Assembly (NCBI GenBank): GCA_008632985.1
Contig: QPGO01000089.1
Span: 1 to 64,000, forward strand
Direction of reading: 5' to 3'
Length of the DNA stretch: 64,000 bases
Source of the DNA: Psammoneis japonica
Taxonomy: Eukaryota
Part shown: positions 1-64,000 of the stretch, piece after piece
How positions within the stretch are numbered: position 1 is the stretch's first letter
How the letters are laid out: every line of letters begins with the position of its first letter
The notes under the pieces: model-generated
Told to the model about the DNA's origin: nothing
Databases searched by the model: none
The model's input: only the letters and a program-made list of their open reading frames with translations
Made by a program: the position numbers and the translations under genes

Positions 1-1743
1 CGGGTCCAAAAGGCAATCAACGTCATCATCGTCGTCGTCATGATCACGCAGGTGGCACATTTTTGTGAGAATGTGACCTGTTGAAATGTTGCCAAACTTT
101 TCTTTCGTGACTAGCTGAGAATGTTGATTGCCCTCGAAACCGCGCCCAAGGGCTTCCCATTCATCCAGGATGTGCAGGGAATCAGCGGCTTCCGGTGCAC
201 AATCCTCGTCTGAAACGTTGCCATCGGCGGGGTGTCCAGTGGCTTCAACATCCTGGTCCAACATGTCCTCAATCTGGCCATCGTTTGGCTGAGCGGGCAG
301 AATGGACGAATCGTGGTTTCCCCGGTTCGTTCTTCCTGCATCATTTCTTCACTTGTGTGGCAGCAGAATCAAGTTTCAAGAGAAAAGACACGTCTTTGTC
401 GGGCAAAATGTTGGCTCCAAAGTCAATGAAGAACAGGCTTTTTTCTGCGTTTTTGATTGCTTTTGCATCAAGGACATTTGCAGCACATTTGAGCAAGTCG
501 GTCATGTGCTGCACACACTTGTTGTGCGTGTCTGCTGCGTTGGTTGCTGTTGCGCCCACCTCAATGCACGAGATGTGCTCGCCACTGCCACTGTGTGACG
601 TCTTTGTCCCCACTGCTTGTGCGGTGAGGAGGCAGTTCTCCTTCAAATCCTTTGCGGCCGCCAGCAAATCAGCGGCAGAAAAATGCTTTTTGCGATCAAA
701 CCCCGTTTCCATGTGATTCCAAATGCCCTCTGCCGCTGTCCAACCCACGTCCTCCGATGCAATCTTGGTCAAAACCTCAAACACAGCAGAGAAGTAAAAT
801 TGCGCAAAATGTCCCCTGATTTTGTTGTGAGAACCAAGCCTTTTCATTCTTTTGTTGTTGTCCCTGTGCTTGCTTTCGGGTGCTTCGAATGGGGAAAAAT
901 CCGACAGCTGCTTTCGGACAATTCTCTGCCAAATTGTTTGTTGTTCTGTTTCCTCACCGACTTTGTCTTCAGGAGGAAAAAGAGCTGAACAACTTTCCAA
1001 ACGTTTGCAGTGCTTTCTGGCAAGGTTCAGGCAAACATTCAGAGCAGCAATCAGCTCGTCTGTGAAGTGAGGCTTGTCTGGAACGCAGTGACAGCCGACA
1101 TGGTGAAGACAGATGAAGATGTCGACTCCAGCATGAGCGGTCTTGACAATGCCCAATTGAATGTGGGGCAGGTCAGACAGAGGAACCTGCTTGGGAACCA
1201 AGCCCCTGACACGAACTGGCAAGTCTCCAGGCTCTCCATGAACAGCAAAACGCCCTTTGCTGTTGACCTTCAGCCTGTCTGTGAGGGAATTCAAATGCAA
1301 CTCTGCATGAACACCCTTGCAAACCACCTGCATGAACTTGGTGGCATCGACACTCGCGCCGTAGATGGAACCTGCGTGTTTGTGTAAAAAAATGATGTCG
1401 CCAGCTCTCAATTTTCTGCACGGAAACAGCTCCGTGACAGTGTCAATCTCCTCGTCCGCAGTGATTGTCCGATGCTCCGGCAGTTCGATTGGACCGCCTT
1501 GCAATCGTTTGCATTCTGCAACCATTTGTTCAAATGCGAGCCTCTTTGCCTCCTCATCATTTGAAGCATGTCATAGATCGTTGTCGAAACAAATTTTTCC
1601 ATGGTGGTGACATGTCACACTTTTGGATCATGGACATGACAAGATCGCAGCGGGTTGGTTTGTCCATCTTGAAACAGGAAACAGATGCGGGCACGCATCT
1701 GTTTGTCGAATGGGAAGGTCCGGCTTCTGGTTGGCCAAGTTGA
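1..1743 (-). pseudogene. Degenerate ORF of unknown function (core frame 341..1525), divergent from the large + strand ORF; probably transposon cargo
   Basis: 394-aa open frame with protein-like composition, very low Tyr and high Cys/His; no recognisable domain; outer limits approximate. Confidence 0.45.
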
Positions 1744-1979
1744 CATTAAAAAAAAAAGCAGTCAGCAGGGGGCCCGAAATCGATGCGATCCCACATCGAT
1801 GTGGTCTCAGGCGAAATTTTCATTGCATCGAATCGGAGAGGACATCAGTCACACAGCAAAGGAAACCAATGCGTCGCTCAACGGAAAAGTGATGACGCGC
1901 GCATTTGTCAATTAACGAATCAAATCACAGTTCACGCGGGTTGCGTCCATCACGCGGGAAAAAGGCAACAAACGCGAAC

Positions 1980-4900
1980 AAAACAACGAAAACGAAACAC
2001 AAAAAGAAGACACAACACCATGAACGTGCCGAGCTCGTCGCTCACAGCACAAGACGATCCCGGCGGCAACTGTCATTGTGCACCAACAGGCATAACTGTG
2101 AAAACTTGCTGCAGGGGGGAGGACGGTGCCGATTGGGTGTTTGTGGATGCCTTGCCTTGCAAGTTTAAAGAAAACGAGGAAAAAGGGGGCACTCACAACG
2201 AAGTCTGCGACTGGTGGAAGGAGGACAATTGCCATGGCATTCGTTTGCGGTTCAACAAGAAATGGGTGGCCAAGGGCAAAAATGCCAAACTGAAATGGTG
2301 AGCATGCGTTGATTCCCGGTTCCTGGTTCCATTGTTGAAGTTTGTGACCGTGCGTCACTGCACCCGGCATTGTAAAAGCATCTGTCCGACGTTGCGTGTT
2401 GCGCGAGATGGAGACGATGCCGTCTCCATTTCACACGGTCTGTCCGTCACCAAGTTTGTTTGGAAAAATTGACACGTGCCCGCACCGACCATGCACCGGC
2501 GTGAGGATGTCTGTCTGACACAGCGTGTTGTGCAAAATGGAGACGACGCCATCTCTGTTTCTCACCAGGGCGACAAGAGTCACTGAACGACAATTTGACC
2601 TTTTTTCCCTTGTGCAACCAACAGCAAACAGGCGTTGAGATTCCACGCAGCCGTCAGCGAGGACGACAGGGAAATGATGAAAGACCCAATCGGCGAAGAA
2701 CGTGCAATTGGAAATTTGGTGGGAACCTTGATGTTGCGAGAGATGGGCAGTCCTGGGTGTGTGGCAGCAGCCCACAACAAAATCACACCGATTGATGAAG
2801 AATTGACAGTGGAGCAGGTGCACACCATTTTCAGGGTCATTTGTGGCAAAGTGATCGTGAAGGACGCAACAGTGCCAAAGAATCCGATGGGGGATGTGAG
2901 ATCAGATGACGAGTGCTTCAAGAAATTGGAGCCACCGTCATGTCCCCTGTCGAAAGGTGTCCCCTGCAAACTGAAGGAATTCACCAACAAAGATTGGGAA
3001 AAACTGATGAACAAACGAAAGAACAACAGAGAAAAGGGGGCAGACATGGGAGATCACTTTGACAGGGTCAACGCAAACGTCAGTCCGGTGGTCATCTCTC
3101 TGTTCGCGGGGGTGACTTGTGCAAGAAACCGCGATGTTGCAGCCATGTGTCCTCTCAGTCAACCAGATGTCAACCAAAGGCATGCCAACAACGAAAAGAT
3201 CTACAACCCAGATTACAACCCGCTGGCGCCAGTCTCCGACAAGAACCGTGTGGGGACTTTGCAGAGTGCGCATGGGCTTTCCAGCAAATCATTCAACATT
3301 GTGCCGCACACAGTGACGCCCCACGTGGTCACACACGAAAATGCAAAATTTGGAAAGGTGCTTCCGGCATGTGAGCTCTGCCGTGATTGCAGCAAACCAA
3401 GTTCGAGCAATGCCAGCGCATCCTTTGTCACCAAGGAATGCGCACTCGGGCTGTTTGCATTGCTCACACACGCCAAGATGGAGGGCGACAATGCGGACAC
3501 AAGGGTGCAATTGATGAATGTGAAAGACAACTGGAACAGTCGGCAGAAGGGACTTTTCCTGACATGCACACTTCATGTGCTTTTGGATCAACAATGCAAT
3601 TCTTTGAGGAAGATGGCAAATTTTGAATCCTTGCACAAAAGATTGCAAAACATCTTGTGCCAAACTTTTGTCATTCAAAACGCAAATTTCGCCCCTTTCG
3701 TGCACCACAAGAACAAGACGACATGCAACAAATCTGTTCTCATGTTGGAGCGCAAGCTGATGTTGCAAGCAATTGCAGCCATTCGGAACTCCTTCCTTGA
3801 TGGACAGTGCCGAGTGTTGGGCGTTGACCTGGCGCTGATGCAGATGTTTCCCCCAAGGCAATTCAGTGAGTTGTTGGGGAAAAAATTGAATTGTGAAGAA
3901 CAAGCACTCATGGACAGGATGTCAAAGAGAGCACCATTGGCGATGTTGTCTCCGTGCGTTGAAGAAAACTCCAAACCGCACATCAAGCATGAATTGTTTG
4001 GGGAAAGAAGTTTGTTCCTTTGCAAAAGATGCAGCGAGGTCATCCAAGCCGACACCACATCGGGTTCAAGGCAAAGCTTTGGGGACGTTTCAATCAGTTT
4101 GCTCGACGACGCGCAACTGAGCACGCACAAATGGATGTTGGGTGAGCTGCGATGCAGGAAGGTGGTCGCAGACGAGGAGGCGATGCAGCCGAAGGAGAAA
4201 GGCAGTGACGGCGTCAAGCACATCGAAGCGCACGAAAAACTTGGGAAAATGGTGCTCAAGCATCTGTTCACTTCCGATTGCGAATCTGTAAAGGCCGTGG
4301 TTCAAAAGGCAAGGGAGGACACCAACAGGAACCTCGGGCTGGGTGGTGATGTCGACGAAGCAGGAAAGTTCGCCGATGCAATGACCCAAACCTCACGTGA
4401 AAGGAAATGTCCCGGGTTGCACAACAGCACAAAGCCGACGAGAGAAAGGGCCGGCATTTCCGGACTGATGATGTTGTTCACGAATTTTTTTTTGACAGCC
4501 AGTCCGCTGAAATGTTGAAACAAGTCATTGGAAGATCCTGCCAATCTGAACCCACCCTGCTGGAGGGATTGCGATTTTCGTTTGCGACGGAATTGGGAGA
4601 AGGAGAAGATGGAAAAGTCCTTCGCGACTGCACAGTGCTGAACAATTTGGCTGAAAACGTGCAGGGAGAGGTGATGGGCCTGTCAACGGAGTTCCTGAAG
4701 GCGGAAACCACTGACAATGATGGACACACGGTGAGACAATTCCTTGCTTTGGGATCCCACCATGATTTCATTCTCAAGAAACGGTGCTTGACATTTGCTC
4801 AATCACTCCTTTCCCGCAACATTGCAGGGAACGAAAAGGGGCAAATTACATTCGGTGAGTGTCAGAGCAACAGAAACACATGACAAGTGAAAACCGCGAA

Positions 4901-7760
4901 TTGTTTGGTCGTGTGCCTGATGACTAAATTTTTTTTCTTTTCTTTTTGAAGGGAATTTTTGCAAATCTCAACGAAACCGATGTTTCCAAGAGCAGTTTGC
5001 CCAAAGCCGCACTGTGTGTCTTTGATGTTTGCATCAAAACACAGGTCATCCTTGGTTTGACGATGACAAAAATGGTGCAGTGCAGAAAAGGGAGGTGGGC
5101 CGACAAAAACCTGCATCCAAAGATGCTGGCCGGTGCCGGAAAGGCAACAATGGAGGCATTTTGTCACTTCGGAGATGTGATCCCCGTCAACAAATGTTGG
5201 TTGGATGCTGGTGCAGAAAATCACAAAACGTTTCTTTTTGAGGCAATGCTTCCCGAAGAAACGTCTGGTCTCGACGATGACGAACAGGAGGCATTGAGCG
5301 AGGAGCCCTTTCATGAATTGATGTTTCGCGATGACACAAACTGTCCAGAGAAAGTCACAAACATGCCTCAGATGGTTGCGTTCATTTGCAAATGGTTGAC
5401 AAAGAAGAAGAGCCTCAAGCTGCTCTCTCTGATCAAACACCTGGAAGAGCCAGGGAACATTGTGGCCAATGAGGCAAACCAGAAAACAGTCTCCACCGAA
5501 GACTTTGTTCCCAAATTTGAAATCGATCCAGTCGAGAAGGGCAGCGGTGAGTGTGACTGAGAAATCGATGCCACGTCGTCTCTGTGTCGCACGGTCTGTC
5601 CTTGTTGGCTTTGATTCTGCGGAATCGACACGGGCATTGTGCCGATTTGGTGTTGTCTGTCTGTGCATCGGATTGTTTGCAGGATCGGAACACCAATGTG
5701 TCTGTTTTGCGGTCCCCGTCCAACCTGTTTGGTGATTGTTTCCACGCAGGAAATGCAAAGCATGCCAAGTTAACCTTGAAGGAATTGATTGAGGAGATTT
5801 GCATGGCAGGCATGAGCGATGTGTACGATGTGGCAGTTTCAGACGAAGTCGAGCTCAACCACCAAAGGCTGAAGAAATGGTTGGAAGAACCAAACAAGAG
5901 ACTCATTGAGGTGGTGGGGAAATCGAAACAGAGCAAGAAAAGGAAACGGGACGATGAGGACGAGCCCGACGAAGAAACTGCTGCAAAACCTGCCGCGAAA
6001 AGAAAATGCAAGAGAATGAAGTGGAGCAAGAATTCCGAGATGCACAAGTCCGTCAGTGGCGCATTGGACAACACCCTGGACACAGACGACAGCCGACAGG
6101 AGGCTTTCGTGAAGTTGCAACAAGAGTGCGTTAGGACCTGTCAAACACAGGCAGCTCTTGGAACAGCCACCTGCCACCTGCAAAGCAACTCTAATCTGAC
6201 AGCGAAGGATGTGAAGGAACAGATTCACTTCAGAGGATTGAACAGCAAAGACAAGGAGGACACTTTTGCACCTGAAGAGCAGGAATCGGAGCAGACATTC
6301 AGAGTCACCTGCAAAAACTACGAAGATGCGATGAACCGAACGCGTGGCACATCTCCAAGGGTTGTCAACTGCCGGAATTTCCAAGCTCTTTTTGATGAAG
6401 ACACAGAGACAAAGAAACGATTTGAGCACGAGTGCGACTTGATTCACAAGAACTTCAGCAAGGCAATGCCATGGGCGTGCAACAACACAATGCGCAATGG
6501 ATTCAAGAAGGAAAGACTGGAGGACAAGGACAAAATGAGAAAGACGATTTTGGAAGACAGAATGAAGGAAGAGAGCGAGAAAAGGAAGGCGAAAAAGAAA
6601 AAAAAGCAGGCAAAGAAGGACGAAGCGGCGCAAGCAGAGGTCACAGCGGAGGGACAACAAGGGGGAGACGACGATGAAGGGATGATGGACACCACCTTGG
6701 CAGACCTGCGGCACCAAGATGGGAGCACACAACAAGTGGGCGACGATGCAGCCGGCAAGCCCACAGTGGAACATGACAAGGAAGCGGATGAGGAAGAGGA
6801 GAAGGAGGAGGAGGCACCAGAGCAGAAGGATGAGGAGGAATCAAGCGACAACAACGACAATGATGACGATGACAAAGATGGAGATCACACCCCAGACAAA
6901 GACGGAGATGGCACAAACCCTCAAGATGAAGAAGAAAAGAAAGATCGTTCAGATGAGGGGGGCGATGGAGGCACTGGCCAGTCGCCAGATGACAAAGCGA
7001 CTTCTGACAGAGACGGAATGTCAGAGGAGAACGACCATCAACAGGGGGGGCAAGGAAATGACAAAGCAGATGAAGAGGAACCGTCTGCTGCAAACCCTGA
7101 GCAACAGGTGGAAGAGGACGAACAAAACATGGATTTTGCTGGGAGTGACGCAGATTCGAAAGACGAACCCCTTGCAAGCGGGAGCAACAGCGACAGCAGT
7201 TGCCCCGTCCTGAATCAAATCAACCAAGAGCCACGTTCCGCTGCAAGGAAAAGACAGCGGAGAAGGGATCTGGTCTCCTCATCCTCTGAATCATCCTCTG
7301 AATCAGAGATTGACGCAGCAGATGATGACGACCCTTCAAGTGCTGTGGCTGCTGCCAAAGTTTCAGCCAAGATGAAAACCCCGTCAACAGTGTCTGAACC
7401 ACCAAACAAGCATGGGAGCAAAAGAGTTTTTTTGGAGAACTCCGGATCGTGAGACAAAAACAGATGCAAAGAAACGCAGGGCAAAGGCGCTGGCCGAAAT
7501 GGAGGAAAGAAAGGAACAGGCAAGGAGGAAGAGAATTGAGGCAGACAAGAAAAGGGGGGGGAAGGCGGCTGCGAGAGCGACGGCAATGGAGGCAAAGAGA
7601 AAGGAAATGGAAAAAATGAAGAACGCCAGCAAGCCAAAGAAGGACACGCCGCCGACAGGAAGAATGACGGCAGAACAACCCCCACCCATCCAAACGAATT
7701 CGTCAAAGAAAAAAAAACGTGCAACTGCCCACGGAACAAAAAACAACAAAAATGAAGTTT
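1980..7760 (+). pseudogene. Large fragmented ORF of unknown function with acidic and Lys-rich C-terminal region (copy A)
   Basis: Consecutive + frames 2635..4518, 4407..4883, 4946..5560, 5584..7452, 7412..7963; several breaks are absent in the duplicate copy, implying one ancestral gene. Confidence 0.6.
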
Positions 7761-8165
7761 GGGCAGTTGGGCACATGCATCGACCACGAAAATGTGTGCG
7801 GGGAGCATCGCAGTCTCAAAATTGCTGCATTGCTGTGAATCCCGCAACATTCATTGTCCACTTTTTGTCCCCCAGGTTTGTGGCGATTTTAGCATTCAGT
7901 TGCTTGTTTTGGGTGTTGCTTGCAGTCACGCTGTTGGTCACAACATGTGAAAACGATGCTTGACTGATTCGATGTGTGCAACGACTTGTCCTGAGTTCGA
8001 CTGTGGATGAGAAATAGACACGGGTGCGTGTCGATTTGGCATGGTCTGTCCTTCAACCGTGGCCACTTGGCATCGATCAGGTGGGGTCTGTCATTCCACC
8101 AGAAGCGTTTCCTGCCACCTCATGACCCAAACCCAAACCCTTCCATCCCAAATGCACCACATGTG
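2491..8165 (+). repeat. 5.7-kb tandem duplication, unit A
   Basis: atgcaccggcgtgaggatgtctgtc at 2491 recurs at 8166; colinear near-identity over the whole unit. Confidence 0.95.
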
Positions 8166-11100
8166 ATGCACCGGCGTGAGGATGTCTGTCTGACACAGCG
8201 TGTTGTGCAAAATGGAGACGACGCCGTCTCTGTTTCTCACCAGGGCGACAAGAGTTGCCAAACGACATTTTGACCTTTTTTCCCTTGTGTGACCAACAGC
8301 AAACATGCGTTGAGATTCCACGCAGCCGTCAGCGAGGATGACAGGGAAATGATGAAAGACCCAATCGGCGAAGAATGTGCAATTGCAAACTTGGTGGGAA
8401 CCTTGATGTTGTGAGAGATGGGCAGTCCTGGGTGTGTGGCAGCAGCCCACAACAAAATCACACCGATTGATGAAGAATTGACAGTGGAGCAGGTGCACAC
8501 CATTTTCAGGGTCATTTGTGGCAAAGTGATCGTGAAGGACGCAACAGTGCCAAAGAATCCGATGGGGGATGTGAGATCAGATGACGAGTGCTTCAAGAAA
8601 TTGGAGCCACCGTCATGTCCCCTGTCGAAAGGTGTCCCCTACAAACTGAAGGAATTCACCAACGAAGATTGGGAAAAACTGATGAACAAACAAAAGAACA
8701 ACAGAGAAAAGGGGGCAGACATGGGAGATTGCTTCGACAGGGTCAACGCAAATGTCAGTCCGGTGGTCATCTCTCTGTTCGCGGGGGTGACTTGTGCAAG
8801 AAACCGCGATGTTGCAGCCATGTGTCCTCTCAGTCAACCAGATGTCAACCAAAGGCATGCCAACAACGAAAAGATCTACAACCCAGATTACAACCTGCTG
8901 GCACCAGTCTCCGACAAGAACCGTGTGGGGACTTTGCAGAGTGCGCATGGGCTTTCCAGCAAATCATCCAACATTGTGCCGCACACAGTGACGCCCTGCG
9001 CGGTCACACATGAAACTGCAAAATTTGGAAAGGTGCTTCCGGCTCATGAGCTCTGCCGTGATTGCAGCGAACCAAGTTCGAGCAATGCCGGCGCATCCTT
9101 TGTCACCGAGGAATGCGCACTCGGGCTGTTTGCATTGCTCACACACGCCAAGATGGAGGGCGACAATGCAGACACAAGGGTGCAATTGATGAATGTGAAA
9201 GACAACTGGAACAGTCGGCAGAAGGGACTTTTCCTGACATGCACACTTCATGTGCTTTTGGATCAACAATGCAATTCTTTGAGGAAGATGGCAAATTTTG
9301 AATCCTTGCACAAAAGATTGCGAAACATCTTGTGCCGAACTTTTGTCATTCAAAACGCAAATTTCGCCCCTTTCACACACTGCAAGAACAAGACGACACG
9401 CAACAAATCTGTTCTCATGTTGGAACGCAAGCTGATGTCACAAGCAATTGCAGCCATTCGGAACTCCTTCCTCAATGGACAGTGCCGAGTGTTGGGCGTT
9501 AACCTGGCACTGATGCAGATGTTTCCCCCAAGGCAATTCAGTGAGTTGTTGGGGAAAAAATTGAATTGTGAAGAACAAGCACTCATGGACAGGATGTCGA
9601 AGAGAGCGCCATTGGCGATGTTGTCTCCGTGCGTTGAAGAAAACTCCAAACCGCACATCAAGCATGAATTGTTTGGGGAAAGAAGTTTGTTCCTTTGCAA
9701 AAGATGCAGCGAGGTCATCCAAGCCGACACCACATCGGGTTCAAGGCGAAGCTTTGAGGACGTTTCAATCAGTTTGCTCGACGACGCACAACTGAACACG
9801 CACAAATGGATGTTGGGTGAGCTGCGATGCAGGAAGGTGGTCGCAGACGAGGAGGCGATGCAACCGAAGGAGAAAGGCAGTGACGGCGTCAAGCACATCG
9901 AAGCGCACGAAAAACTTGGGAAAATGGTGCTCAAGCATCTGCTCACTTCCGATTGCGAATCTGCAAAGGCCGTGGTTCAAAAGGCAAGGGAGGACACCAA
10001 CAGGAACCTCGGGCTGGGTGGTGATGTCGACGAAGCAGGAAAGTTTGCCAATGCAATGACCCAAACCTCACGTGAAAGGAAATGTCCCGGGTTGTGCAAC
10101 AGCACAAAGCCGACGAGAGAAAGGGCCGGCATTGCCGGACCAATGATGTTGTTCACGAATTTTGTTTTTGACAGCCAGTCCGCTGAAATGCTGAAACAAG
10201 TCATTAGAAGATCCTGCCAATCTGAACCCACCCTGCTGGAGGGATTGCGATTTTCGTTTGCGACAGAATTGGGAGAAGGAGAAGACGAGTGCTGAACAAT
10301 TTGGCTGAAAACGTGCAGGGAGAGGTGATGGGCCTGTCAACGGAGTTCCTGAAGGCGGAAACCGCTGACAATGATGGACACATGGTGAGACAATTCCTTG
10401 CTTTGGGATCCCACCATGATTTCATTCTCAAGAAACGGTGCTTGACATTTGCTCAATCACTCCTTTCCTGCAACATTGCAGGGAACGAAAAGGGGCAAAT
10501 TGTGTTCGGTGAGTGTCAGAGCAACGGAAACACATGACAAGTGAAAACCGCGAATTGTTTGGTTGTGTGCCTGATGACCAAATTTTTTTTCTTTTCTTTT
10601 TGAAGGGAATTTTTGCAAATCTCAATGAAACCAATGTTTCCAAGAGCGGTTTGCCCAAAGCCGCACTGTGTGTCTTTGATGTTTGCATCAAAACACAGGT
10701 CATCCTTGGTTTGACGATGACAAAAATGGTGCAGTGCGGAAAAGGGAGGTGGACCGACAAAAACCTGCATCCAAAGATGCTGGCCGGTGCCGGAAAGGCA
10801 ACAATGGAGGCATTTTGTCACTTCGGAGATGTGATCCCCGTCAACAAATGTTGGTTGGATGCTGGTGTAGAAAATCACAAAACGTTTCTTTTCGAGGCAA
10901 TGCTTCCCGAAGAAACGTCTGGTCTCGACGATGACGAACAGGAGGCATTGAGCGAGGAGCCCTTTCATGAATTGATGTTTTGCGATGACACAAACTGTCC
11001 AGAGAAAGTCACAAACATGCCTCAGATGGTTGCGTTCATTTGTGAATGGTTGACAAAGAAGAAGAGCCTCAAACTGCTCTCTCTGATCGAACACCTGGAA

Positions 11101-13810
11101 GAGCCAGGGAACATTGTGGCCAACGAGGCAAACCAGAAAACAGTCTCCACCAAAGACTTTGTTCCCAAATTTGAAATCGATCCAGTCGAGAAGGGCAGCG
11201 GTGAGTGTGACCGAGAAATCGACACCACGTCGTCTCTGTGTCGCACGGTCTGTCCTCGTTGGCTTCGATTCTGCGGAATCGACACGCCATTGCACCGATT
11301 TGGTGTTGTCTGTCTGTGCATCGGATTGTTTGCAGGATCGTAACACCAATGTGTCTATTTTGCGGTCCCCGTCTAACCTGTTTGGTGATTGTTTCCACGC
11401 AGGAAATGCAAAGCATGCCAAGTTAACCTTGAAGGAATTGATTGAGGAGATTTGCATGGCAGGCATGAGCGATGTGTGCGATGTGGCAGTTTCAGACGGA
11501 GTCGAGCTCAACCACCAAAGGCTGAAGAAATGGTTGGAAGAACCAAACAAGAGACTCATTGAGGTGGTGGGGAAATCGAAACAGAGCAAGAAAAGGAAAC
11601 GGGATGATGAGGATGAGCCCGATGAAGAAACTGCTGCAAAACCTGCCGCGAAAAGAAAACGCAAGAGAATGAAGTGGAGCAAGAATTCCGAGATGTGCAA
11701 GTCCGTCAGTGGTGCATTGGACAACACCCTGGACGCAGACGACAGCCGACAGGAGGCTTTCGTGAAGTTGCAACAAGAGTGCGTTGGGACCTGTCAAACA
11801 CAGGCGGCTCTTGGAACAGCTGTCTGCTGCCTGCAAAGCAACTCTAATCTGACAGTGAAGGATGTGAAGGAACAGATTCACTTCAGAGGATTGAACAGCA
11901 AAGACGAGGAGGACACTTTTGCACCTGAAGAGCAGGATCGGAGCAGACATTCGGAGTCACCTGTGAAAACTACGAAGATGCGATGAACCGAACGCGTGGC
12001 ACATCCCAAGGGTTGTCAACTGCCGGAATTTCCAAGCTCTTTTTGATGAAGACACAGAGACAAAGAAACGATTTGAGCACGAGCGCGACTTGATTCACAA
12101 GAACTTCAGCAAGGCAATGCCATGGGCGTGCGACAACACAATGCGCAATGGATTCAAGAAGGAAAGACTGGAGAACGAGGACAAAATGAGAAAGACGATT
12201 TTGGAAGACAGAATGAAGGAAGAGAGCAAGAAAAGGAAGGCGAAAAAGAAAAAAAAGCAGGCAAAGAAGGACGAAGCGGCGCAAGCAGAGGTCACAGCGG
12301 AGGGGCAACAAGGGGGAGACGACGACGAAGGGATGATGGACACCACCTTGGCAGACCTGCGGCGCCAAGATGGGAGCACACAACAAGTGGGCGACGATGC
12401 AGCCGGCAAGCCCACAGTGGAACATGACAAGGAAGCGGATGAGGAAGAGGAGAAGGAGGAGGAGGCACCAGAGCAGAAGGATGAGGAGGAATCAAGCGAC
12501 AACAACGACAATGATGACGATGACAAAGATGGAGATCACACCCCAGACAAAGACGGAGATGGCACAAACCCTCAAGATGAAGAAGAAAAGAAAGATCGTT
12601 CAGATGAGGGGGGCGATGGAGGCACCGGCCAGTCGCCAGATGACAAAGCGACTTCTGACAGAGACGGAATGTCAGAGGAGAACGACCATCAACAGGGGGG
12701 GCAAGGAAATGACAAAGCAGATGAAGAGGAACCGTCTGCTGCAAACCCTGAGCAACAGGTGGAAGAGGATGAACAAAACATGGATTTTGCTGGGAGCGAT
12801 GCAGATTCGAACAATGAACCCCTTGCAAGCGGGAGTGACAGCGACAGCAGTTGCCCCGTCCTGAATCGAATCAACCAAGAGCCACGTTCCACTGCAAGGA
12901 AAAGACAGCAGAGAAGGGATCTGGTCTCCTCATCCTCTGAATCATCCTCTGAATCGGAGATTGACGCAGCAGATGATGACGACCCTTCAAGTGCTGTGGC
13001 TGCTGCCAAAGTTTCAGCCAAGATGAAAACCCCGTCAAAAGTGTCTGAACCACAAACAAGCATGTGAGCAAAAGAGTTTTTCGGAGAACTCCGGATCGTG
13101 AGACAAAAACAGACGCAAAGAAATGCAGGGCAAAGGCGCTGGCCGAAATGGAGGAAAGAAAGGAACAGGCAAGGAGGAAGAGAATTGAGGCAGACAAGAA
13201 AAGGGGGGGGAAGGCGGCTGCGAGAGCAACGGCAATGGAGGCAAAGAGAAAGGAAATGGAAAAAATGAAGAACGCCAGCAAGCCAAAGAAGGACACGCCG
13301 CCGACAGGAAGAATGACGGCAGAACAACCCCCACCCATCCAAACGAATTCGTCAAAGAAAAAAAAACGTGCAACTGCCCGCGGAACAAAAAACAACAAAA
13401 ATGAAGTTTGGGCAGTTGGGCACATGCATCGACCACAAAAATGTGTGCGGGGAGCATCGCAGTCTCAAAATTGCTGCACTGCTGTGAATCCCGCAACGTT
13501 CATTGTCCACTTTTTGTTTTTAGGTTTGTGGCAATTTTAGCATTCAGTTGCTTGTTTTGGGTGTTGCTTGTAGTCATGCTGTTGGTCACAACATGTGAAA
13601 ACGATGCTTGACTGATTCGATGTGTGCAATGACTTGTCCTGAGTTTGACTGTGGATGAGAAATAGATGCGGGTGCGCATCGATTTGGCATGGTCTGTCCT
13701 TCAACCGTGGCCACTTGGCATCGATCAGGTGGGGTCTGTCATTCAACCGGAAGCGTTTCCTGCCACCTCACAACCCAAACACAAACCCTCCCATCCCAAA
13801 TGCACCACAC
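8166..13810 (+). repeat. 5.7-kb tandem duplication, unit B (pseudogene copy B)
   Basis: ORFs 8418..10295, 10513..11343, 11114..11986, 12090..13067 match those of unit A; ends at cccaaatgcaccacac, joined to copia gag. Confidence 0.95.
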
Positions 13811-18509: not shown

Positions 18510-21500
18510 GGAGACGGGCTGCATGACCGGTGCAACCCAGACATCCACCTGGATTGTGCCAAGCGGAAATGGGTGCATGCGCTGTTGACCTCAAGTCATG
18601 CATCAACCATCACACCCAAGATGCTCTCCAAGAGGTGGAACATTGGTTTGACGGCCACCAAGAACACCCTCAGAGTGACGACCCAGGCAGGGGTCCGCAA
18701 TGTCTGCATGCCATCCGAGCGGAAAGTCTGGAAGAAAGCCCCGTGGCTTGAGTTCCCTGCTGTCAAGAGACACCTCTGCTCTGACCAGATGTTTTCGAAG
18801 GTCAGGTCAATGCATGGCAAGATGGGAGGAAGCGCACCTGCCAACAAAAGAGGGCATGACAAGCTCCATCCTTGGAAGAGAAACAGGACCACCTGAATGC
18901 CATCATGTCATTTGTGCATGACGTTGGCATTCCGCAAGTCCTTGTGTTGGATGGCGCGCCGGAAATGGCAGAAGGCCAGACCAAGGAGATTTGCAAGGAA
19001 TGCAGGATGCACCAGGAGGTGTCCACCCCGCACAGCCCCTGGCAGAACCTGGCCAAGGCATCCATCCATGAGTTGAAGAAGAGAGTCCGAGTGACTCTGT
19101 GCCGGACTGGCGCTCACAGGCGACTTTGGTCCCGCAGTGCCAAATGGACATGTGATGTCCAACACATGATTGCGACTGCCAGCACATCGGACATGGGAGG
19201 ATGAGTCCCAGAAGAAGAGGTGACAGGTTCAACACCTGACATTTTGTCACTCTCTCTCTTTGATTGGTGTCAACCTGTCTGCTGTCACATGCCTGTGGCA
19301 GAGTTCCCACACAAGAAGAAGTGCGTCGGCCATTGGCTTGGAGCAGCCGACAACTGCAACTGCGCTGGCGACATGGCATTTGTCATCCTTCGCAAATCAG
19401 GCAGACCCATCATTCGGAAAGATGTGTGGGCCATGCCGGAGGATGACCTTAAAACTCTGGCGATCAAAACGGATCTTGCGTCAGTCAATCAGGCCTTGAT
19501 CGAATGACTTGACATCCCAGAACAGGGTGCCAATGCTGACTTCCCTGAACTCCCTGATGACTTCATGGACGAATGGGGCAATGCTGTCGAACCCATGGAA
19601 CCCGACGCTTCCAAACCAGAAACTGATGAGCACACCCCGGAGGGGCCAGATGAACACCTCACAGCTCAAGTCATGTCACCACGTGGAGGCAAGCTGACTC
19701 ATGCTGGGGTCATTGCATGCAAATGAGATGATGACGGGGTTCCCATTGGTGCTGGGAATGACAACCCTGTCCCAGACTCGAGGACACACGATGTGGAGTT
19801 TCCTGATGGATCCACTGATTCCTGTGCCACTGACGCAATTGCAAAGAACCTGTTCACTCAGATGGACTCTGAAGGGGATGACTGCCAGATCATGAAGGAG
19901 ACAGTCGATCACCAATGTGATGCCCGTGCCACAATGGCTGATGACAGGTGCATGACAACTGAGACTGGCAGGCACGCTCCTGGGAGGATGACTGCAGGCT
20001 GGGACCTGCAAGTCAAATGGAAGGACGGGACTGCATCCTGGGTTCCCCTCAAGGATTTGAAGGAATCTGACCCAGTCGAGGTTGCTGAGTGTGCTGCAGC
20101 AAACAAGGCAGCTGGTGAACCATCTTTTAACTGGTGGGTCCGAGACGTCTTGCGTCACAGGTCAAGGATCCTGAAGAAAGTCAAGCCGCGTTGCTGGAAA
20201 CGCACGCACAAGTTCAGAGTTGAGCTCCCAAAATCCGTTGAGGAAGCTGTGGAGACAGACAACAGAGTGGGGGCTGACTTTTGGTTCAAGGCCATTGAGA
20301 AGGAAATGCGCAACGTCATGCATGTGTTTGAATTCTGTGATGATGACACTGCACCAGTCGGGCACAATCACATTGATTGTCACATGATCTTTGACATCAA
20401 GAGCACCCTCCAACGCAAAGCAAGGTTTGTGGCCGGAGGCCATCAAACCGATCCACCCAAGGAATTGACTTGTTCCAGTGTGGCATCACATGACAGCGCT
20501 GGGACAGCATTCACTGCAGCAGCTCTGAATGACCTGGAGGTCCTGAGTGCTGACGTTCAGAGTGCCCACTTGAATGCACACACTGAGGAGAAGTGTTGCA
20601 CTGCTGCTGGCCTGGAATTTGGGAAGCACAATGAAGGAAGGCCGGCAATTGTTGTCTGAGCCTTGTGTGGTCTCAAGTCTTCAGGTGCGAGATTCAGGGA
20701 ACACATGGCAGCCACCTTGCATGACACTGGGTTTGAGTCTTGCAAGGCTGACCCAGATGTCTGGATGTGAGCTGCGGTCAAGCCAGGTGGCTTCAAGCAC
20801 TGGGAACATGTGCTTGTGTGCATGGATGACTTGTTGTGCATCTCCCATGAACCTCAGAAGGTCGTGGATCATGTGAGCTCCAGGCACGGGCTCAAGGACG
20901 GAAGTGTCTGCGAGCCGGAAGAGTGCTTGGGCGCCCAGATCAGAAAGTGCCAGTTGTCTGACTTGGATGGCAAGACGCGCTGGGCCATGTCCTCTGACCT
21001 TTGTGTCAAAAGGGCATTGGCCAATGTTGAGTTGGAGCTCAAGAAAACTGGCGGGCCTTCCGACAAAGGCGTTGACGCCCTTGAGCTCAGGGCATGGGCC
21101 TGAGCTGGATGGCTCACCTGAGTTGAGTGCCAAAATGGCCAACTGCTGCCAAGGCCTTGTTGGTGTGCTGCGATGGACAGTTGAGCTGAGGCGAGTGGAC
21201 ATTTTTGTCGCTTCCTCACTCATGTCCTCCTGCTTGGCAGCACCACGAGTTCAACACCTGGGCGAGGTGCTCCATGTCTTTGCATGCTTGAAGGCTTGCT
21301 CCAAGTCTGCGCCAGTGTTCGACGACGCTGAGCCGGTCTTTGACGAGAGTCGTTTTGCCAAGTGCAACTGGGGAGAACATTGTCCTGGTGTGGCTGAACC
21401 AATTCCGCCGAACATGCCAGAAGCACGTGGGAACAGCATGACTGCTGCTTGCTTTGTTGGCGCTGATCATGCCGGATGCTGTGTGACGTGCAGGCCCCAC

Positions 21501-21900: not shown

Positions 21901-22052
21901 AAGTCCCAAATGGGGACAAACAGAATGGGTTTGCCGTGCATGCGCGGCTTTGCTCATCCCCAAATGAAAATGATGCCCTGGAGCAGGGCAGCATCAGGTT
22001 GCACTTGTCTGTCAATCTGGCCCAAGTGGAGCCAGCATCAGCTCAAGGGGGC

Positions 22053-38429: not shown

Positions 38430-38487
38430 TTCGTAGTTTCGTTTCTGTAGATTTCACCTCGCACAATGTGCGGGAGTGACATCACTG

Positions 38488-38919: not shown

Positions 38920-38923
38920 CTGC

Positions 38924-39360: not shown

Positions 39361-39362
39361 CT

Positions 39363-44299: not shown

Positions 44300-44695
44300 G
44301 ACGCGTTCCAGACGCAGGTGGGAATCCGTGTGACATTGGGCCCGCAGACTTCTACGTGCGAGCTCCGTAGTAAAATTATACGGCAATTAAAATGTCAATG
44401 ATCGCCAACTGAAAATGAGGCAATTTTGCGAACGCACAAACTCGCACATGATTGAAGTGCATCATTTTTTACTTAGCCAGTTACATTCTTCAGACATTGA
44501 AGAATGTAACTGGCGCATTTTTGTTTCTATAAATTTGTCACATAAAACGTCTGGGGCTTCGCAAAACAGCGAGTCTGGACAACATTTTTTAAATATCACA
44601 CGTAGAAATCTACGTACGAAACATACGACGGATGATAAAAATTATTGTTGTCACACGTCAGTGCTGCGAGCTCCCACCTAGGGCTGGAACGCGTC
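44300..44695. mobile_element. MITE family 1, other subfamily, young copy (396 bp)
   Basis: TIRs gacgcgttccag...ctggaacgcgtc; perfect TSD AGTT; TpA-rich. Confidence 0.95.
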
Positions 44696-46009
44696 AGTTT
44701 TGACACCATGCCCGCATCCCAGCAAGAGAATCATCATGACATGCAGGAGGTTCCCTGGACAACATCTTCTGATCAGGAGTCAAGCTCATTGCAAAAAGCA
44801 CCCCATCATTGAGGATGATGTGGTCTGAGGCATTGACACAATGACAGAAGCCATGGCCACAATGGACGAGTGATCTCTTCAGGGCAGCTGTGCCATGTTC
44901 TTTGTGGTCACAGCATTCTCGTGCATCAGCGAGCAGTGTGTTGGAGTTGAAGAGGCAGTTTGGTGTCATGGATGATGCAGTGCTCCCTGATGTTTTGAGA
45001 GCAGCAGTGAAAGGCAGAGCATGGCTTGATGCAAACTCACTGAGAGCTGCCGCTGAGTCATTCACACCAGCTGTTGCAGTGCCTGCACCAGTCAAGGATG
45101 AGGGTTTGGGCAGCTCCTTCTGCTGGCAGGGCTTGGGAGAAAACTCTTTCCAAATGTCACATCTGGATCAACACGGATGTGTTGTGCAGGTGTGACAATG
45201 AATGAAGTCTGATCATGACTCTGAAGGTTCATTGTGTTGATGGATGACAGAGCTGTGGATGTCAAACAAATTGCATGAGGCCTGTCGGGGTCTGCGACAT
45301 GGAGTGGAGCTTGGTCCACAATCATTTTAATGGATTGCATGTCTGCAGGGTCCACTGTGCAAGGTGGAAATGCTTGGTCGACAAGGCAATCTCAGGGCAA
45401 GTCCACAATGTTTGTCTTGGGTCCAGCATGCTCTGGATTGTCAAAGAACGGGTCCAGATCAAATGTTGAATCTGCACAGATCATGTTCAGGCATGCACAG
45501 AGATTTGGCGTCATTGCACGTGCTTGGGGTTCACAATGGATCTCTGCAACAGATGCAGGAGTGGCCTTTGCAAGGTTGGGAGACACCATGGTTTTACTTG
45601 GTGAAAACATTTTTGGTCACGCACACGCAGAAATCTGGTGTGTTTCTACGGTCATGAAAAATGCTGGGAAAGCACAAAAAAAATGTTTCGGGAACAAAGA
45701 CGAGGCTTCCTTGATCGGCTCACAAAGCAAGAAATGAAAAGAAACAGAGAGCATGGCACAGAGTTCTGTGGCACAGCGTGAGGCCATGACTTGACAGAAT
45801 GCCAAAGGTCAATGATGACAGAGGCATGAAAGACTCCCTGAGCACTGGGGCTGTGACAACACGAGCACCAGCAGATGAAGGGTGAGAGGCCGAACTGAGA
45901 GAGATCTGCTCATTCACCCAAATGGCCTGGTCTCATTGTCTGCACACAGTCTGTCCATTGCAGGACAGACAGGCTGACAGGATGCAGGACATCAGCTGTG
46001 GACAGCAGA

Positions 46010-46300
46010 TCATGGACGGTGGATGGAGGGTGGGGTGTGGCAGATGGTGGGTGGATCATGCTGGATGGCAGATGGTGGACAAATGGTGGAGGATGGTTGA
46101 TGATTGCTGGTGGATGGCAGCCAGGGGCTGGTGGATGAAGGGTTCTTCTGAGTGCCAGGTGGTGTGTGGTGGATGCTGGGTGCTGGACATGATCTTGTGG
46201 AGCACGCTTGGTGGCAGATGATGCTGATTGCTGGATGGCTGATGGCGGGTGGCAGATGGGAGAGTGGCTGGTGCAGGAACAGGGACATGCTGGGTGAGGG
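46010..46300. repeat. GGATGG/GGTGG-rich low-complexity tract
   Basis: Degenerate short repeats with strong G skew. Confidence 0.6.
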
Positions 46301-46469
46301 ATCTCAGAACCCTTGTCTGCAGTGGAAGTGCTGTGTGTGGCCTGACACCCCTGTCAACACTGCCAGTGGAGAAAGATTGGCCAGCTCTCTTTTGGCTCAC
46401 ATTTTGATGGGAGCAATGTGCAGTGCTTGCAGAGTGGCAAAAAGCAGCTGATCTGGCTTCTTGGCCCAG

Positions 46470-46916
46470 CGCAGCATGCGTGCAGACAAAAGGTTGTTTT
46501 TGTCATGCCCTTTGTGACATTTAAAGGCTGCAACACGTCGCCGTGACACATTGACTCTCATCAGCAGCTGCACGTTGCACTCCTCCCCATGTGTCGCGCG
46601 TCCATGCGGCTCTTTGCTGACGTGCACTGACACTGCACGGTTTTGGCAGAACAGTGTGGGTGCGTGCGAAGGAACATGCACAACTGCACAGAGTTTTGCG
46701 CGTTCGACAGTGATCAACGTTGCTGCAGACAACTCCCACTCAGGGTTTCGAACCCCTGGCCTCCTGCCCAATGGTTGCGATGAACCACTCCGCTGTGAAT
46801 TCATGATGCAGCGTGCATGCAGACAAAAGGTTGTTTTTGTCACACCCTTTGCGACATTTAAAGGCTGCAACACGTCGCCGTGATACATTGACTCTCATTG
46901 GCAGCTGCACATTGCA
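46470..46916 (-). mobile_element. TRIM-like miniature LTR element with internal tRNA-like (A/B box) sequence
   Basis: 110-bp direct repeats 46470-46579 and 46807-46916; PPT ggggaggag on minus; flanks CCAG/CCAA; internal agcggagtggtt and ggttcgaaacc on minus. Confidence 0.7.
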
Positions 46917-60035: not shown

Positions 60036-63000
60036 TCAAAAGAAGCGTGCCAAATTGGCAGACCCACCTCGACCCGTGGCCCTGGTGGTTTCTGGACCCG
60101 CACATTGACGAACAAAGCTGACTCCTTCTGTTCTTGTGGCCTTGTCAACTGCATGAATCAGGTGAGTGCTGATGGTTGTGTTGTCTGTTTCCGAAATTGC
60201 GCATGTTTCAACAATGGCGTGCTCCAACACTGTTTCGAAATGCAAAGCACTGTTTGCAGTTGCCAATCATCAAACGTGCCCATCAACCGCTGTTGTGAAA
60301 CTTGGCCGCCCATGTTTTTCTCCTGTCTTGAACTGCCCAAACGCACTTTGTCTTCTCGTGTGACTCTGTGATTCCCGGTTGTTCCTCTTGCACCTGCAAT
60401 TTTTCACCGACCGCCTTGATTGGAGCCAAGTGCAGTTTTGGAGCATGCACGGCTTTTTTGCATGTGGACAACTCTTGGTTTTTTACTTGATCCAATTGCC
60501 ATCAACTGACAAGGTCGGTGTGTTGCATGCGTTCCACCATGGTGCGCTTGTCCGCCTGGCAAGTGCAAGGATGCACAACTGCAAATGACTCACCATCACT
60601 CATTCTTTGAAAGAAAGAATGAAGTCGTGAAGGGAAGAACGAATCGCCGCACCGAGTTCCAAAGTTTGCATTTGCCCAGTCATGAATGGCACCTTCACTG
60701 TTGCAGCCTGGGTGCACGCGGTGAGTGTCGATGCCATTTTTGTCACAAATTTGAGGAGAACAGGGTGCACCTGACAATGCTTTTGTTTTCCCTTCCACAG
60801 GAACGAAACAGCCTTGTTCGAAGCAATGCACTTCAACATGTACGAGGAACCACCAAGACGGTGATTGGCCGCATCGCCCGCCGCACGCATTTTGCGATCA
60901 GACTTCTTTGTTGTCCATGGATTGGCGGAGATGGCTCGGTGAACCATCATTTGGTCTTCCATGCGAGACGCAACCTGACCCAGGAAGACGTCAAAGCTCC
61001 GCTGTTGAGCCGTGGCGGCTGGCAATTTGAAAAAATCCTTCAACAGTGGTTCGCCAAGACCAGCATCGAAATTCATGGCATGACGGCAGAAGAACAGGAA
61101 AGTGGGCAAATGGATCAATTCATGGAGTTTTTGCAGCTTCCAACCAGCACCCTTGTGCCGTGGGGAGAAATGGACCACACGAGCGACAAGCAAATGAATT
61201 TTCTTCGCAATCTTTTGAATGTCGTTTCTGTCTGAAGGAGGGTCACCCAGCTTGTGCCATGCATGGAATGCAAGCATGTCTTTGAGCAGCTTTGCATGCT
61301 GGCAAACGCTGCATCTAATTGGGATTCTCTTTTTGTTGGCTCTCTTGCGCTTGTCCTCTCCTTCGTTGTCTGATTTGTTGTCGTTGTTTTCAACAGAACT
61401 GTCAGTGTCGCATTCGTTGGCTGCCGCGTCTTCTCCATCGTCTGGGTCAACTGCTGCCTGGCAATCATCCTCCAGATCGCATTCTTGTGGCATGTAGATT
61501 CTGTCCATTCTGAATTTTGGGACGCGGCGACCCAAGGGAAGTGATGGTTCCTCCGCGTCTTCTTTGCTGAAGCAGGACGCGCAGACCTCGCGACCCTCCT
61601 TTGCAAGCAACAGAAGGTAAAAGACAAAGGCCATCCCCGCCCAGTGATGAGAATTTAAGAAGGTGAGTGAAGTGGCCCCACCTTTGAAATTGGTGCACAG
61701 AAAGGAGGGGCTGCACATGGATCGGTGATTCCTGAACATCTTTTCTGCCAGCCCGTCTACCTCCTTTCTCACATTTGCAGTCATGCTGTCCACAAACACA
61801 CGGATCTCCCTTTTCAGAGTGCCATTTTCATGCAGGTGCATCATGTCGCTGGCCGTGGAAAGAGTTGCTCCAAATGGTTGCTCGCCAAAGTCTGCACACA
61901 GCAAGCTGTTGGTTGGAACATTGTGTTGCTTCATGTGGTGCAGTTCTTCCCTCCAGTGACTCCGCTCCTTGTCTTCAAGACTTTCATCATTGGCCATGCA
62001 CTGACCTCGCAGCAAGTTGCCAGCACGCACCAGCTCGCATTCCTTCCAAGGGTCGTCAAGGTCATTGCATCCTGTCATGCAAAAACGGGAGCAGCGTTGG
62101 TGACAATTCTTCGCCGCACCTGCCCACAAGGCAGTCTCCGCTCTTTGCATCTCCATTGATTGGGATTGTGGTTGGAATTGCATGAAGGTGACGGATCTCG
62201 TCGCCTCGTCGCACATGACATTTGAAGCCACCCAGCTCCATTGCGTTGAGCAAAGGCTGAAGCATGGTTTTCAAAACCTTGTGGTGCTCACAAAGACTTT
62301 GCCCCTTTTCCGACTTGCGTGCATTGGACTGCTGTTTTGCTGCGGAAGAAGACATTTTTTCAAGGTCGGGAGTGCATCCAAGAACTCTCCACTTGGCTTT
62401 GTCGTGCCACTGTTTGAAGGCAACATGCGCGGAGGTCACTGTCACGGGTTCTCCGCAAGAAGATCCCATCGAAGCTGTCTGTCCCGTCTTGTCTGCACAA
62501 ACTGTCAAACATTCCAAGAACTGTTTTAGTGGATCCTTGACTCTAGCCGAATGCGTGCTCCTGCACCACTCTCGGCCAAGACGCATTTGTCATCCAAGCC
62601 CTTGGCAACGCACATGCCAAAAGGATTGTGTGTGTCCGCAAGATTGCTTTTGTCAGCCCACGTGCAAGTGTCAAGCATGTGTGATTCCCGCACCTCTTGG
62701 AAGTTCCATCTTGGAACCATTGCAGTTTTCTCTCCCGTTCGCCGCTTGGAGTTTCCAGGTTGACCGGTGTCATCTCTCGTTCAGGTCCGGGGAACGATTT
62801 GGAAAGAGTTTCCATCAGTGCATTGCGACGAGGCATTTTGGTCCCGAGCTTGAATGTGATGCCGCAATGTCTTTCGACAAATCCCACAATGTCGTCGCAC
62901 AGGTGGAGCGGCGCTCTGCAGTCATCTGTCAGCTTGCTCAACTCCACACAGGCCCCGTTTGGGTTGCTCAATGACGACAAGCTGGCAAAGGCTGCCTCGG

Positions 63001-63720
63001 CGGGGTGTTGGCAGATGTTGCCCAATTGGCTGTCATCCAACAGAGAGGAAATGTTCCCTTGGGACGCTTGCGTGTCATCCGCTGCATTGCTGTCTGGAAC
63101 ATCAATGGTGACGTCCGGTGGCGCGGTGAAAGAGTTTGCTTCTGTGTCGCTGCTTTCGTCTGAAAGCATCTCCAGTGACATGAAGTGACTGTCGTCCGGG
63201 CCACAAATGGAGGAGAGAGGGGATGTGTTGTCTTCAAATGCAGGTGACCATGGAGCGTCAGAAGGTGGTTCGGACGAACGGGTGGAACCAGCCATGCGGG
63301 CATTGGAAATGGAGGCCCCTCGTCTCGATCATCTCAATCCATGTGTGGAGGTGTCGTTGGATGACGAGGAAGAATCGAGTCCCGAGAAGCCATTGAATGC
63401 AATTTGCATTCCCAGAGTTGCTCCGCCTTCCAACCACTTTGACACAAGCATCGGGCAACAAGTTGGGTCCCGTGCACCTTGTGACGCCAAGTTGGACATT
63501 CGCGAGCGACAGAGAGACATTGTGGATTGCGATTTAAGTGACCGAGCATGCGCTGGAAGGAGCGATGGCAACAGGGACAGGTGGTTGCTTCTTTGCCCTT
63601 GTTTTTGGACTGAGGAAGTTCCATTTTGGTGTTTTGGTGGAAAGAAACAGCAAAGGATCGGCGAGAACATTGTGTCAATGGTTGCGGCTGAGGTTTGGTC
63701 GTGTGGACGGTGTGTGTTGT
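60036..63720 (-). pseudogene. Plavaka-type DNA transposase, frameshifted, with N-terminal Zn-finger-like motif
   Basis: TVCADKT (YxDKT), WRVLGCTPDL (LGYIP), HHKVLKTMLQPL, INGDAKSGDCLVGR, WKLQKLHELIHL, NFDAGLGE..KDFFKLPA; CPCCHRSF...HL upstream; recognised from motifs only, no HMM run. Confidence 0.75.
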
Positions 63721-64000
63721 GAGGGTTGGCGGGAAACAAGACACGAAATTGGCGCGAAAATGGTGATCATTGATTTTTTTGCATTGATGAATGCTTTTGC
63801 AGTTGCCTGTCAAAAGAATGCGTTGGGACAATTGAACACTTTCGTGTTGTGTGACAAATGAGAATGCAAAAATTGCCAACGGAAAGGGAAGAGCAAGTTA
63901 GAACACAGTCTTTGGAACATTTTGTGATCACCACTCACTGTCAATTCTTTAACTTGCGCGCGCAGTGAAAAGGCACGCGTTGTTCCACGTCCGTCAGTTC

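Follow-up and report, generated by a model that had tools for sequence, protein, structure and literature searches.

A mutational process that erases the dinucleotide TpA has been described in Bigelowiella natans, whose mutation-accumulation lines acquire A to G and T to C changes, only at TpA, in two integrated viral regions (Mettrop et al., bioRxiv 10.64898/2026.01.13.699255). The rate in these regions is given as ~6e-7 per site per generation, ~1,000 times that elsewhere in the genome. Of 231 changes, 230 were A to G or T to C, all of those lay on TpA, and hypermutation appeared in only some lines. The preprint also reports 324 coding sequences almost without TpA, enriched in reverse transcriptase (RT) and DDE domains, as well as 124 clusters of 1-kb windows that are poor in TpA and rich in CpA+TpG. 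Its authors propose an ADAT2-like deaminase as the enzyme and a role in defence, and point to DNA-acting ADAT2 in amphioxus and trypanosomes. A full-text literature search returned this preprint as the one description of a TpA-erasing signature. The present analysis concerns a 64,000-nucleotide stretch of Psammoneis japonica (GCA_008632985.1, contig QPGO01000089.1, positions 1-64,000, forward strand; the window, below), in which a first-pass annotation, made from the sequence alone, had seen the mark of a "reverse RIP" (RIP, repeat-induced point mutation) and a system not described before. The preprint contradicts the second of these statements and makes much the same proposal as the first. 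The window is a real and extreme instance of the process, which has been reported once so far, in a preprint.

In RIP, as known from ascomycete fungi, repeated mobile DNA is likewise ruined in place by transitions on both strands, which leave a dinucleotide signature. RIP, however, changes C to T, mostly at CpA, creates TpA, and lowers the GC content, whereas in the window TpA is destroyed, CpA and TpG are made, and GC rises. Only 282 TpA sites were counted across the window, where ~3,960 are expected from base composition (observed/expected ratio, O/E, 0.07); the minimum among 200 mononucleotide shuffles was 3,819. Every one of the 64 1-kb bins has a TpA O/E of 0.40 or less (median 0.048), six bins have no TA at all, and exactly two TA were found at 18510-22236, so that the near-absence of TpA noted by the first-pass annotation, along with its estimate of about two sites for that interval, is confirmed. 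TG (O/E 1.64; 6,395 occurrences) and CA (O/E 1.55; 6,282 occurrences) are enriched, CG is reduced (O/E 0.61), and AA and AG stand at 1.35 and 0.88; instead of the excess TpA and low CpA+TpG that mark RIP, the opposite is found. The deficit of TA+CG (5,232) nearly equals the surplus of TG+CA (4,733), as expected if TA and CG became TG or CA. When the thresholds of the B. natans preprint are applied, which comprise TpA of at most 0.43 and a second limit on CpA+TpG, all 64 bins pass the former and 46 pass both.

The loss of TpA has a direct consequence for coding potential. On both strands together, there are 2,792 TGA triplets but only 255 TAA and 142 TAG, and 39 open reading frames (ORFs) of at least 250 a.a. 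were found in all frames, most of them without a family or homologue; these long ORFs are in excess because TAA and TAG contain TpA and are erased. For example, a homologue search with the ORF at 5557-7449 was empty, and it was taken as a false ORF. Annotation pipelines will misread such regions, as a result of long false ORFs and weak domain scores, and so will RIP indices; a paper on Rhizoctonia (PMC7884421) deals with ordinary RIP indices. Pfam domain searches of the ORFs revealed no recognizable host gene in the 64-kb window, no deaminase gene was found in it, and tRNA and Rfam scans of it gave no matches.

The direction of change is seen in a Ty3/gypsy retrotransposon with long terminal repeats (LTRs) of 433 bp (Table 1). 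Its pol ORF, said by the first-pass annotation to stay open for 867 codons with about two Tyr, does contain 867 codons, two of which encode Tyr, and no protein among the matches listed in a large protein database is more than 58% identical to it. The ORF was aligned with the first 60 of 120 listed homologues, and a column was scored as Tyr where at least 70% of homologues carry Tyr. Only 1 of 27 conserved Tyr is kept, and 24 of the 26 losses are to Cys (16) or His (8), the remaining two being Trp and Ala. Other conserved columns are kept in 396 of 506 cases (Fisher p 1e-15). Relative to the 60 homologues, Tyr falls to 0.2% (vs 3.8%), and Cys and His rise to 4.4% (vs 1.2%) and 4.2% (vs 2.4%), respectively; in all 120 listed homologues the Tyr share is 3.0-4.9%. 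The motifs HLDD (34884-34895, minus strand) and VGCCHI (35049-35066, minus strand) were found where they had been placed before, opposite Y-I-D-D and MGYYHI in the consensus of the 60 homologues. Further common replacements are Ile to Val, Thr, or Met, Thr to Ala, Leu to Ser or Pro, and Met to Val, which are those expected from TA to TG or CA.

Since both TAY to TGY (Cys) and TAY to CAY (His) occur on the coding strand, either strand of the DNA must have been hit, in agreement with the earlier claim that A to G and T to C changes coexist on one strand. When the gypsy and the DNA transposon described below are pooled, the ratio of Cys to His outcomes is 22:12, which is not significantly uneven (p 0.12). 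The first-pass annotation had also predicted that A to G changes would be enriched at TpA over other contexts, and this was borne out: T precedes the changed base in 17 of 23 first-position A to G replacements at conserved gypsy columns, compared to 33 of 115 control codons (p 8e-5), and precedes only 4 of the 101 A-first codons that pol retains.

Retroelements are not alone in being affected. The window also contains a frameshifted DNA transposon, found by tblastn with intact ORFs of 950-1,300 a.a. from metagenome contigs (L001-L011), whose TpA O/E is 0.05, as against 0.50-0.66 in 14 metagenome relatives (L001-L014). These relatives have ordinary TpA and serve as outgroups, not as further cases of TpA loss. 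Where at least 5 of 7 outgroups carry Tyr, the transposase keeps 2 of 16; the 14 losses are to Cys (6), His (4), and other residues (4). DNA elements are thus hit as well as retroelements, as had been claimed. The CADKT motif reported earlier lies at 62485-62499 (minus strand), opposite Y[VIL]DKTGK in the seven outgroup transposases. Although this conserved YxDKTGK motif is real, the name Plavaka given to the element is unconfirmed: neither the window ORFs nor three intact relatives of 1,051-1,294 a.a. match a Pfam family at E ≤ 0.01. A fungal origin of the DNA, which that name would imply, has no support. The transposon family has four matches in the large protein database and intact copies on metagenome contigs, and two of the relatives (L006 and L011) have two further large ORFs on the opposite strand. 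Another relative (L013, whole contig, 2,079 bp) has a CpG O/E of 0.25, TG of 1.70, and TpA of 0.52, which is CpG decay alone, without loss of TpA.

The timing of the changes can be obtained from pairs of copies, which differ almost only by transitions. The two LTRs of the gypsy element differ by 7 TG/CA doublets, 4 TA/TG or TA/CA sites, 11 CG/TG or CG/CA sites, and 3 others, and CpG decay alone would predict only 0.7 doublets. When the LTR of a second, partial copy serves as an outgroup, several of the differing sites have TA as the shared state. The two LTRs should have been identical at integration; therefore, the TA-type differences arose after it, and they cannot stem from RNA or cDNA that was edited before the element inserted. 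The 3′ part of gypsy and the second copy differ by 38 doublets and 21 TA/TG or TA/CA sites, and two tandem 5.7-kb units of an unnamed family by 24 doublets and 13 TA singles; CpG-type differences number 46 and 83 in these pairs, the CpG singles of the four copy pairs being 11, 46, 83, and 39. As read from the sequence, these comparisons demonstrate a change of TpA to TpG or CpA on both strands, at the DNA level and after integration. Together with the Tyr losses, they bear out the proposal that a DNA-level process acts at TpA in LTR elements, in a DNA transposon, and in unclassified DNA. Its dissociation from RIP, from the decay of 5-methylcytosine (5mC), and from the action of ADAR on RNA also stands, given that TpA is destroyed, that both strands are involved, and that the LTRs differ.

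Per-copy losses were calculated with a model in which TG and CA are equally likely outcomes and all sites behave alike. At the split of the LTR pair, TpA is reconstructed at 2.9-4.3% of dinucleotides (now 0.93%), and at the split of the gypsy 3′ part from the second copy at 3.6-5.5% (now 1.16%). For the tandem units it was already low at duplication, ~0.7-1.1%, and loss continued after. In these three pairs the loss per copy is ~0.77-0.79 for TpA and 0.16-0.19 for CpG, and the background change is 0.003-0.0045 per site. Loss of TpA is thus estimated, roughly, at ~7-8 times CpG decay and ~350-475 times the change at other sites; saturation of the susceptible sites makes both ratios lower bounds. 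Discordant doublets are in excess over single differences, which appears to reveal two classes of site, one fast and saturated and the other slower, and the similar TpA loss in all three pairs looks like saturation of the fast class beside a slower, refractory class such as TTAA. A burst at insertion and a steady decay are not separable from the pair data. Other genomic copies agree with the direction of change: among the 40 variant rows shown of 316, TA elsewhere stands against TG or CA in the window in 9, CpG elsewhere against TG or CA in 16, and six rows make up three TG/CA doublets.

Cytosine decay takes place in the same DNA. Deamination of 5mC at CpG feeds the same pool of TG and CA; it cannot remove TpA, however, and is here the slower of the two processes. 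CpG O/E ranges from 0.15 to 0.98 among the bins examined, and in 3 of the 4 older repeat pairs compared no type of difference is commoner than CG/TG or CG/CA, so that both the CpG depletion and the copy differences typical of CpG decay are present in the sequence. Across the window, TpA and CpG O/E rise and fall together (Spearman 0.43, p 3e-4), which we read as two decay processes acting together in the same DNA, with the young copies least affected. TpA O/E also climbs with k-mer depth (Spearman 0.66, p 7e-5, 30 bins). This depth was taken from a sequencing run (X1) in the form of Logan contigs (140.7 Mb in total), which hold 48% of sampled words of 32001-42000; for the gypsy element it implies ~300-900 copies. 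Two X1 contigs link 32388 directly to 38923 with the gypsy absent, apparently an empty site within another copy of the surrounding repeat.

The neighbourhood of the dinucleotide influences its fate. TTAA survives best among TA contexts (O/E 0.28), whereas ATAT and ATAC/GTAT are at ~0.01. Where copies differ at a TA, the A that changed was, at all 21 informative sites, the one with the better 3′ neighbour (p 1e-6), in the order TAC/TAT > TAG > TAA. The Tyr codons weakly agree, as those in which the opposite-strand A is followed by A gave 4 Cys and 0 His. In the LTR at 32391-32823, TTAG has become CCAG at two places where 38488-38920 and 40860-41310 keep TTAG. In these cases, the T beside the TpA also changed, which equals TAA to TGG on the other strand; this may be a neighbouring second hit, although two cases are too few to interpret.

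The reading that we consider probable is one of TpA-directed transitions on integrated mobile DNA, on both strands, aimed at inserted or silenced DNA, of the B. natans kind, and likely due to an adenine deaminase. Adenine in 5′-TA-3′ DNA would, most likely, be deaminated to hypoxanthine by a TadA/ADAT2-type deaminase, and the resulting inosine would pair as G when the DNA is next copied. What the sequence itself shows is that, after integration, a TA had one of its two A:T pairs changed to G:C, on either strand, giving TG or CA about equally. TpA removal reached ~80% in the fairly young gypsy and ~99% in old relics, beside the ordinary decay of CpG to TpG and CpA; Tyr codons turned to Cys and His, and TAA and TAG stops were lost, with abundant false ORFs. 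Inserted or silenced DNA, rather than the genome at large, would be the target of the process, which would inactivate mobile DNA much as RIP does. Its restriction to repeats is inferred from the near-normal TpA content of gypsy at insertion and from the B. natans precedent. A TadA/ADAT2-like DNA adenine deaminase is our best guess for the enzyme, since the T-A-C/T preference suits this type better than the U-A-G context of ADAR; a review table lists 5′-ACG after U33 for TadA/ADAT2 and 5′-UAG for ADAR.

Several points weigh against this reading. The case for targeting was built on the repeat DNA of the window, and the pieces of single-copy depth are the most depleted of all (TpA O/E 0.01), a result that a bias of the whole genome would give as well. 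A change of A on one strand is a change of T on the other, and adenine and thymine chemistry are therefore indistinguishable. The pairs of the context test are unpolarised, and perhaps a third of the TA singles in old pairs are new TAs, by estimate. Sites are heterogeneous, as discordant doublets far exceed the single-site prediction, contrary to the assumption of the rate model. Lastly, run X1 may be the assembly's own data and hence not independent of the sample.

If the same targeted process instead acted on thymine, oxidation or some other modification of the T of TpA, for example to 5-hydroxymethyluracil by a TET/JBP-type enzyme, would be followed by mispairing or faulty repair that leaves C. 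TpA is self-complementary, T to C on one strand being A to G on the other, and the change of TTA to CCA, twice in one LTR, is readable as two adjacent hits on T. On the other hand, no sequence feature favours thymine, and the order of contexts reads just as well as 5′-R-T-A; the preference for TAC/TAT resembles the U-A-C context of TadA, and the authors of the preprint also prefer adenine deamination (Mettrop et al.). Thymine chemistry is judged unlikely.

A bias of the whole genome would make the repeats of the window display merely a neutral equilibrium, or a compositional trait. Depletion in every bin, the pieces of single-copy depth included, would agree with it; we read the single-copy-depth pieces as old relics. 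However, gypsy carried ~3-5.5% TpA at insertion, in its non-coding LTR as well, which is hardly sustainable at a rate several hundred times that of other sites, and young, high-copy parts retain more TpA than old ones. Furthermore, in B. natans the process is local, with 6.0% TpA in the remaining genome (Mettrop et al.). We therefore hold a genome-wide bias to be improbable, and targeting of mobile DNA by a TpA-directed process to be the better account of the window.

Error-prone repair by DNA polymerase eta in heterochromatin changes WA to WG (W being A or T), yields A to G at TA, and becomes strand-symmetric over time; the first-pass annotation had listed it among its candidates. ApA should then be hit too, but it is enriched in the window, not depleted, with AG below expectation, and ApA to ApG replacements affect only 4 of 61 conserved Lys and Asn codons (two K to R, two N to S), compared to the 26 of 27 Tyr lost. 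The specificity is thus for TpA and not for WA, which contradicts this candidate and leaves it very improbable.

An error of sequencing or assembly, such as a modified base miscalled by a long-read basecaller, is comparably hard to credit. No sequencing platform is recorded for the assembly or for run X1, but X1 contigs match the window in eight exact pieces over 41277-46495, with 0 differences at a depth of 26-36, and the window has a sized N gap, which typically comes from scaffolding and not from long reads by themselves. In addition, paralogous copies carry fixed, differing outcomes at the same sites, with TG in one and CA or TA in another, as mutation would produce and a systematic miscall would not.

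The weakest proposal, ADAR-like A-to-I editing of retrotransposon RNA before reverse transcription, has in its favour that ADAR prefers U 5′ of the edited A and that retroelements are affected, but it is contradicted by the LTR pair of gypsy, whose members have diverged at TA-derived sites, and by the DNA transposon, which is equally hit. Moreover, T to C changes accompany A to G on the coding strand, and the 3′ preference is for C or T, not G.

Compared to B. natans, the window has in common with it transitions of the A to G and T to C type at TpA and not in other A contexts, with TpG or CpA as the outcome by strand, a long-term loss of TpA with gain of CpA+TpG, RT and DDE domains among the TpA-poor sequences, and a rate excess of the same order (~1,000-fold there; the ~350-475-fold found here is a lower bound). 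The two cases differ in that the rate in B. natans was measured in living lines, in two single-copy viral insertions with mild depletion (Rho 0.45 for the insert from a nucleocytoplasmic large DNA virus), whereas here an end state is read from sequence alone, in LTR elements, a DNA transposon, and unclassified repeats that together span 64 kb. The preprint refers to no cluster as large as this one. To the B. natans description the window adds action after integration, spread over all examined element classes, a rate relative to CpG, and a candidate 3′ preference.

Deaminases that act on related substrates offer further comparison. APOBEC3 also hypermutates mobile DNA by deamination in a dinucleotide context, but it converts C to U on minus-strand cDNA during reverse transcription, which makes its G to A changes strand-asymmetric, limited to retroelements, and common to both LTRs; none of this holds here. 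TadA and ADAT2-ADAT3 share with the proposed process the A-to-I chemistry and, in their natural substrate, a U or T 5′ and a C 3′ of the target A, as does the TadA of base editors; they differ in that the window is without a deaminase gene. Early adenine base editors prefer YAC. To our knowledge, a repeat-mutating role of a natural TadA/ADAT-type enzyme has been shown in no organism. TadA has been evolved to accept DNA, in the adenine base editors.

For a natural process that rewrites A:T to G:C at a single dinucleotide, and in selected genomic regions, a 2026 preprint is the sole source. In the end state seen in the window, whole families of retrotransposons and of DNA transposons have been put out of action, Tyr codons have been erased along with two of the three stops, and GC is raised. 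Action after integration, on both strands, and with a defined 3′-neighbour preference provides handles for a search for the enzyme; a natural DNA adenine deaminase, if true, would be of interest to both genome defence and base editing. It is a tentative possibility that this is a second, independent lineage, other than B. natans, in which a dedicated, chromatin-targeted DNA adenine deaminase serves as the main inactivator of all classes of mobile and repeated DNA. Such a system would be the mirror image of RIP beside cytosine methylation, would bear the fingerprint of a TadA/ADAT2-derived enzyme, and may add C to T changes at CpG.

Table 1. Features of the 64-kb window of P. japonica, with the basis of each assignment.
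Feature	Coordinates	Strand	Basis
Repeat block, TpA almost erased, TpG/CpA enriched	1..64000	.	O/E and 1-kb bins
Two tandem 5.7-kb units, each with a decayed ORF, family unnamed	2491..13809	+	Repeat comparison, 96.4% identity
Heavily decayed element, probably Ty1/copia	18510..22236	+	Motif and sub-threshold Pfam
17-bp satellite arrays flanking assembly gap (N 23531-23699)	22236..27680	.	Repeat comparison
Full-length Ty3/gypsy LTR retrotransposon, partly mutated	32391..38920	-	LTR pair and Pfam; TpA O/E 0.17, CpG O/E 0.87
Gypsy 3′ LTR	32391..32823	-	92.6% identity to 38488-38920
Gypsy pol ORF, 867 codons open, conserved Tyr replaced	32862..35465	-	Pfam RVT_1, RNase H, Integrase_H2C2, rve
Gypsy 5′ LTR	38488..38920	-	Pair of 32391-32823
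Second, partial copy: gypsy 3′ part with LTR	39435..41303	-	91% identity to 37065-38920
Mosaic of old unique-depth relics and a young, very high-copy element (43009-45009)	41277..46495	.	X1 contigs, k-mer depth
Frameshifted DNA transposon, large transposase, without Pfam model	60298..63316	-	tblastn with intact relatives

The tandem units stand head-to-tail (2491-8161 and 8166-13809). Their ORF at 2599-4515 has seven distant homologues of ~470-750 a.a. (best E 6e-15), in which Pfam detected no family at cut-off, and its Tyr content is 0.3-0.5%, compared to 2.3-2.9% in five of the homologues; it belongs to an unclassified element or gene family. In the probable copia element, the 2 TA are found in 3,727 bp, at a CpG O/E of 0.44. 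The CMDD motif reported by the first-pass annotation is present at 20819-20830 (plus strand) and reads as an xMDD motif, and sub-threshold Pfam matches to rve (E 0.003) and then RVT_2 (E 0.017) follow the copia order. The copia label is supported to this extent, but the assignment is not firm, given the sub-threshold scores.

The mosaic unites sequences of different age. Its relics have a TpA O/E of 0.01 and a CpG O/E of 0.20, and the young element 0.35 and 0.62, respectively; in 3,252 bp pooled from the mosaic there are 2 TA, with O/E of 1.79 for TG and 1.88 for CA.

The satellite arrays lie at 22236-23530, 23700-23979, 25373-27675, and 27748-27866, and include short inverted arrays. Their unit is close to CAAAATCACAAAGGGTG, and units differ mainly at one CG/TG/CA position; the summed X1 depth is ~28,000 over 27001-27667. 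There is 1 TA in 3.6 kb of array, which says little on the process, as the unit may never have contained TA. A 2.2-kb direct repeat (13810-15996 and 30202-32390, 95.6% identity) flanks 14 kb that include the copia relic and the satellites, and could represent either a segmental duplication or the two LTRs of a large nested element; its CpG loss per copy (0.32) is above that of the other pairs. CpG reaches its lowest level of the window in the region 47000-52000 (O/E 0.16), where TpA stands at 0.04 and tandem repeats of 190 bp and 120 bp occur; this is probably the oldest or most methylated part of the window.

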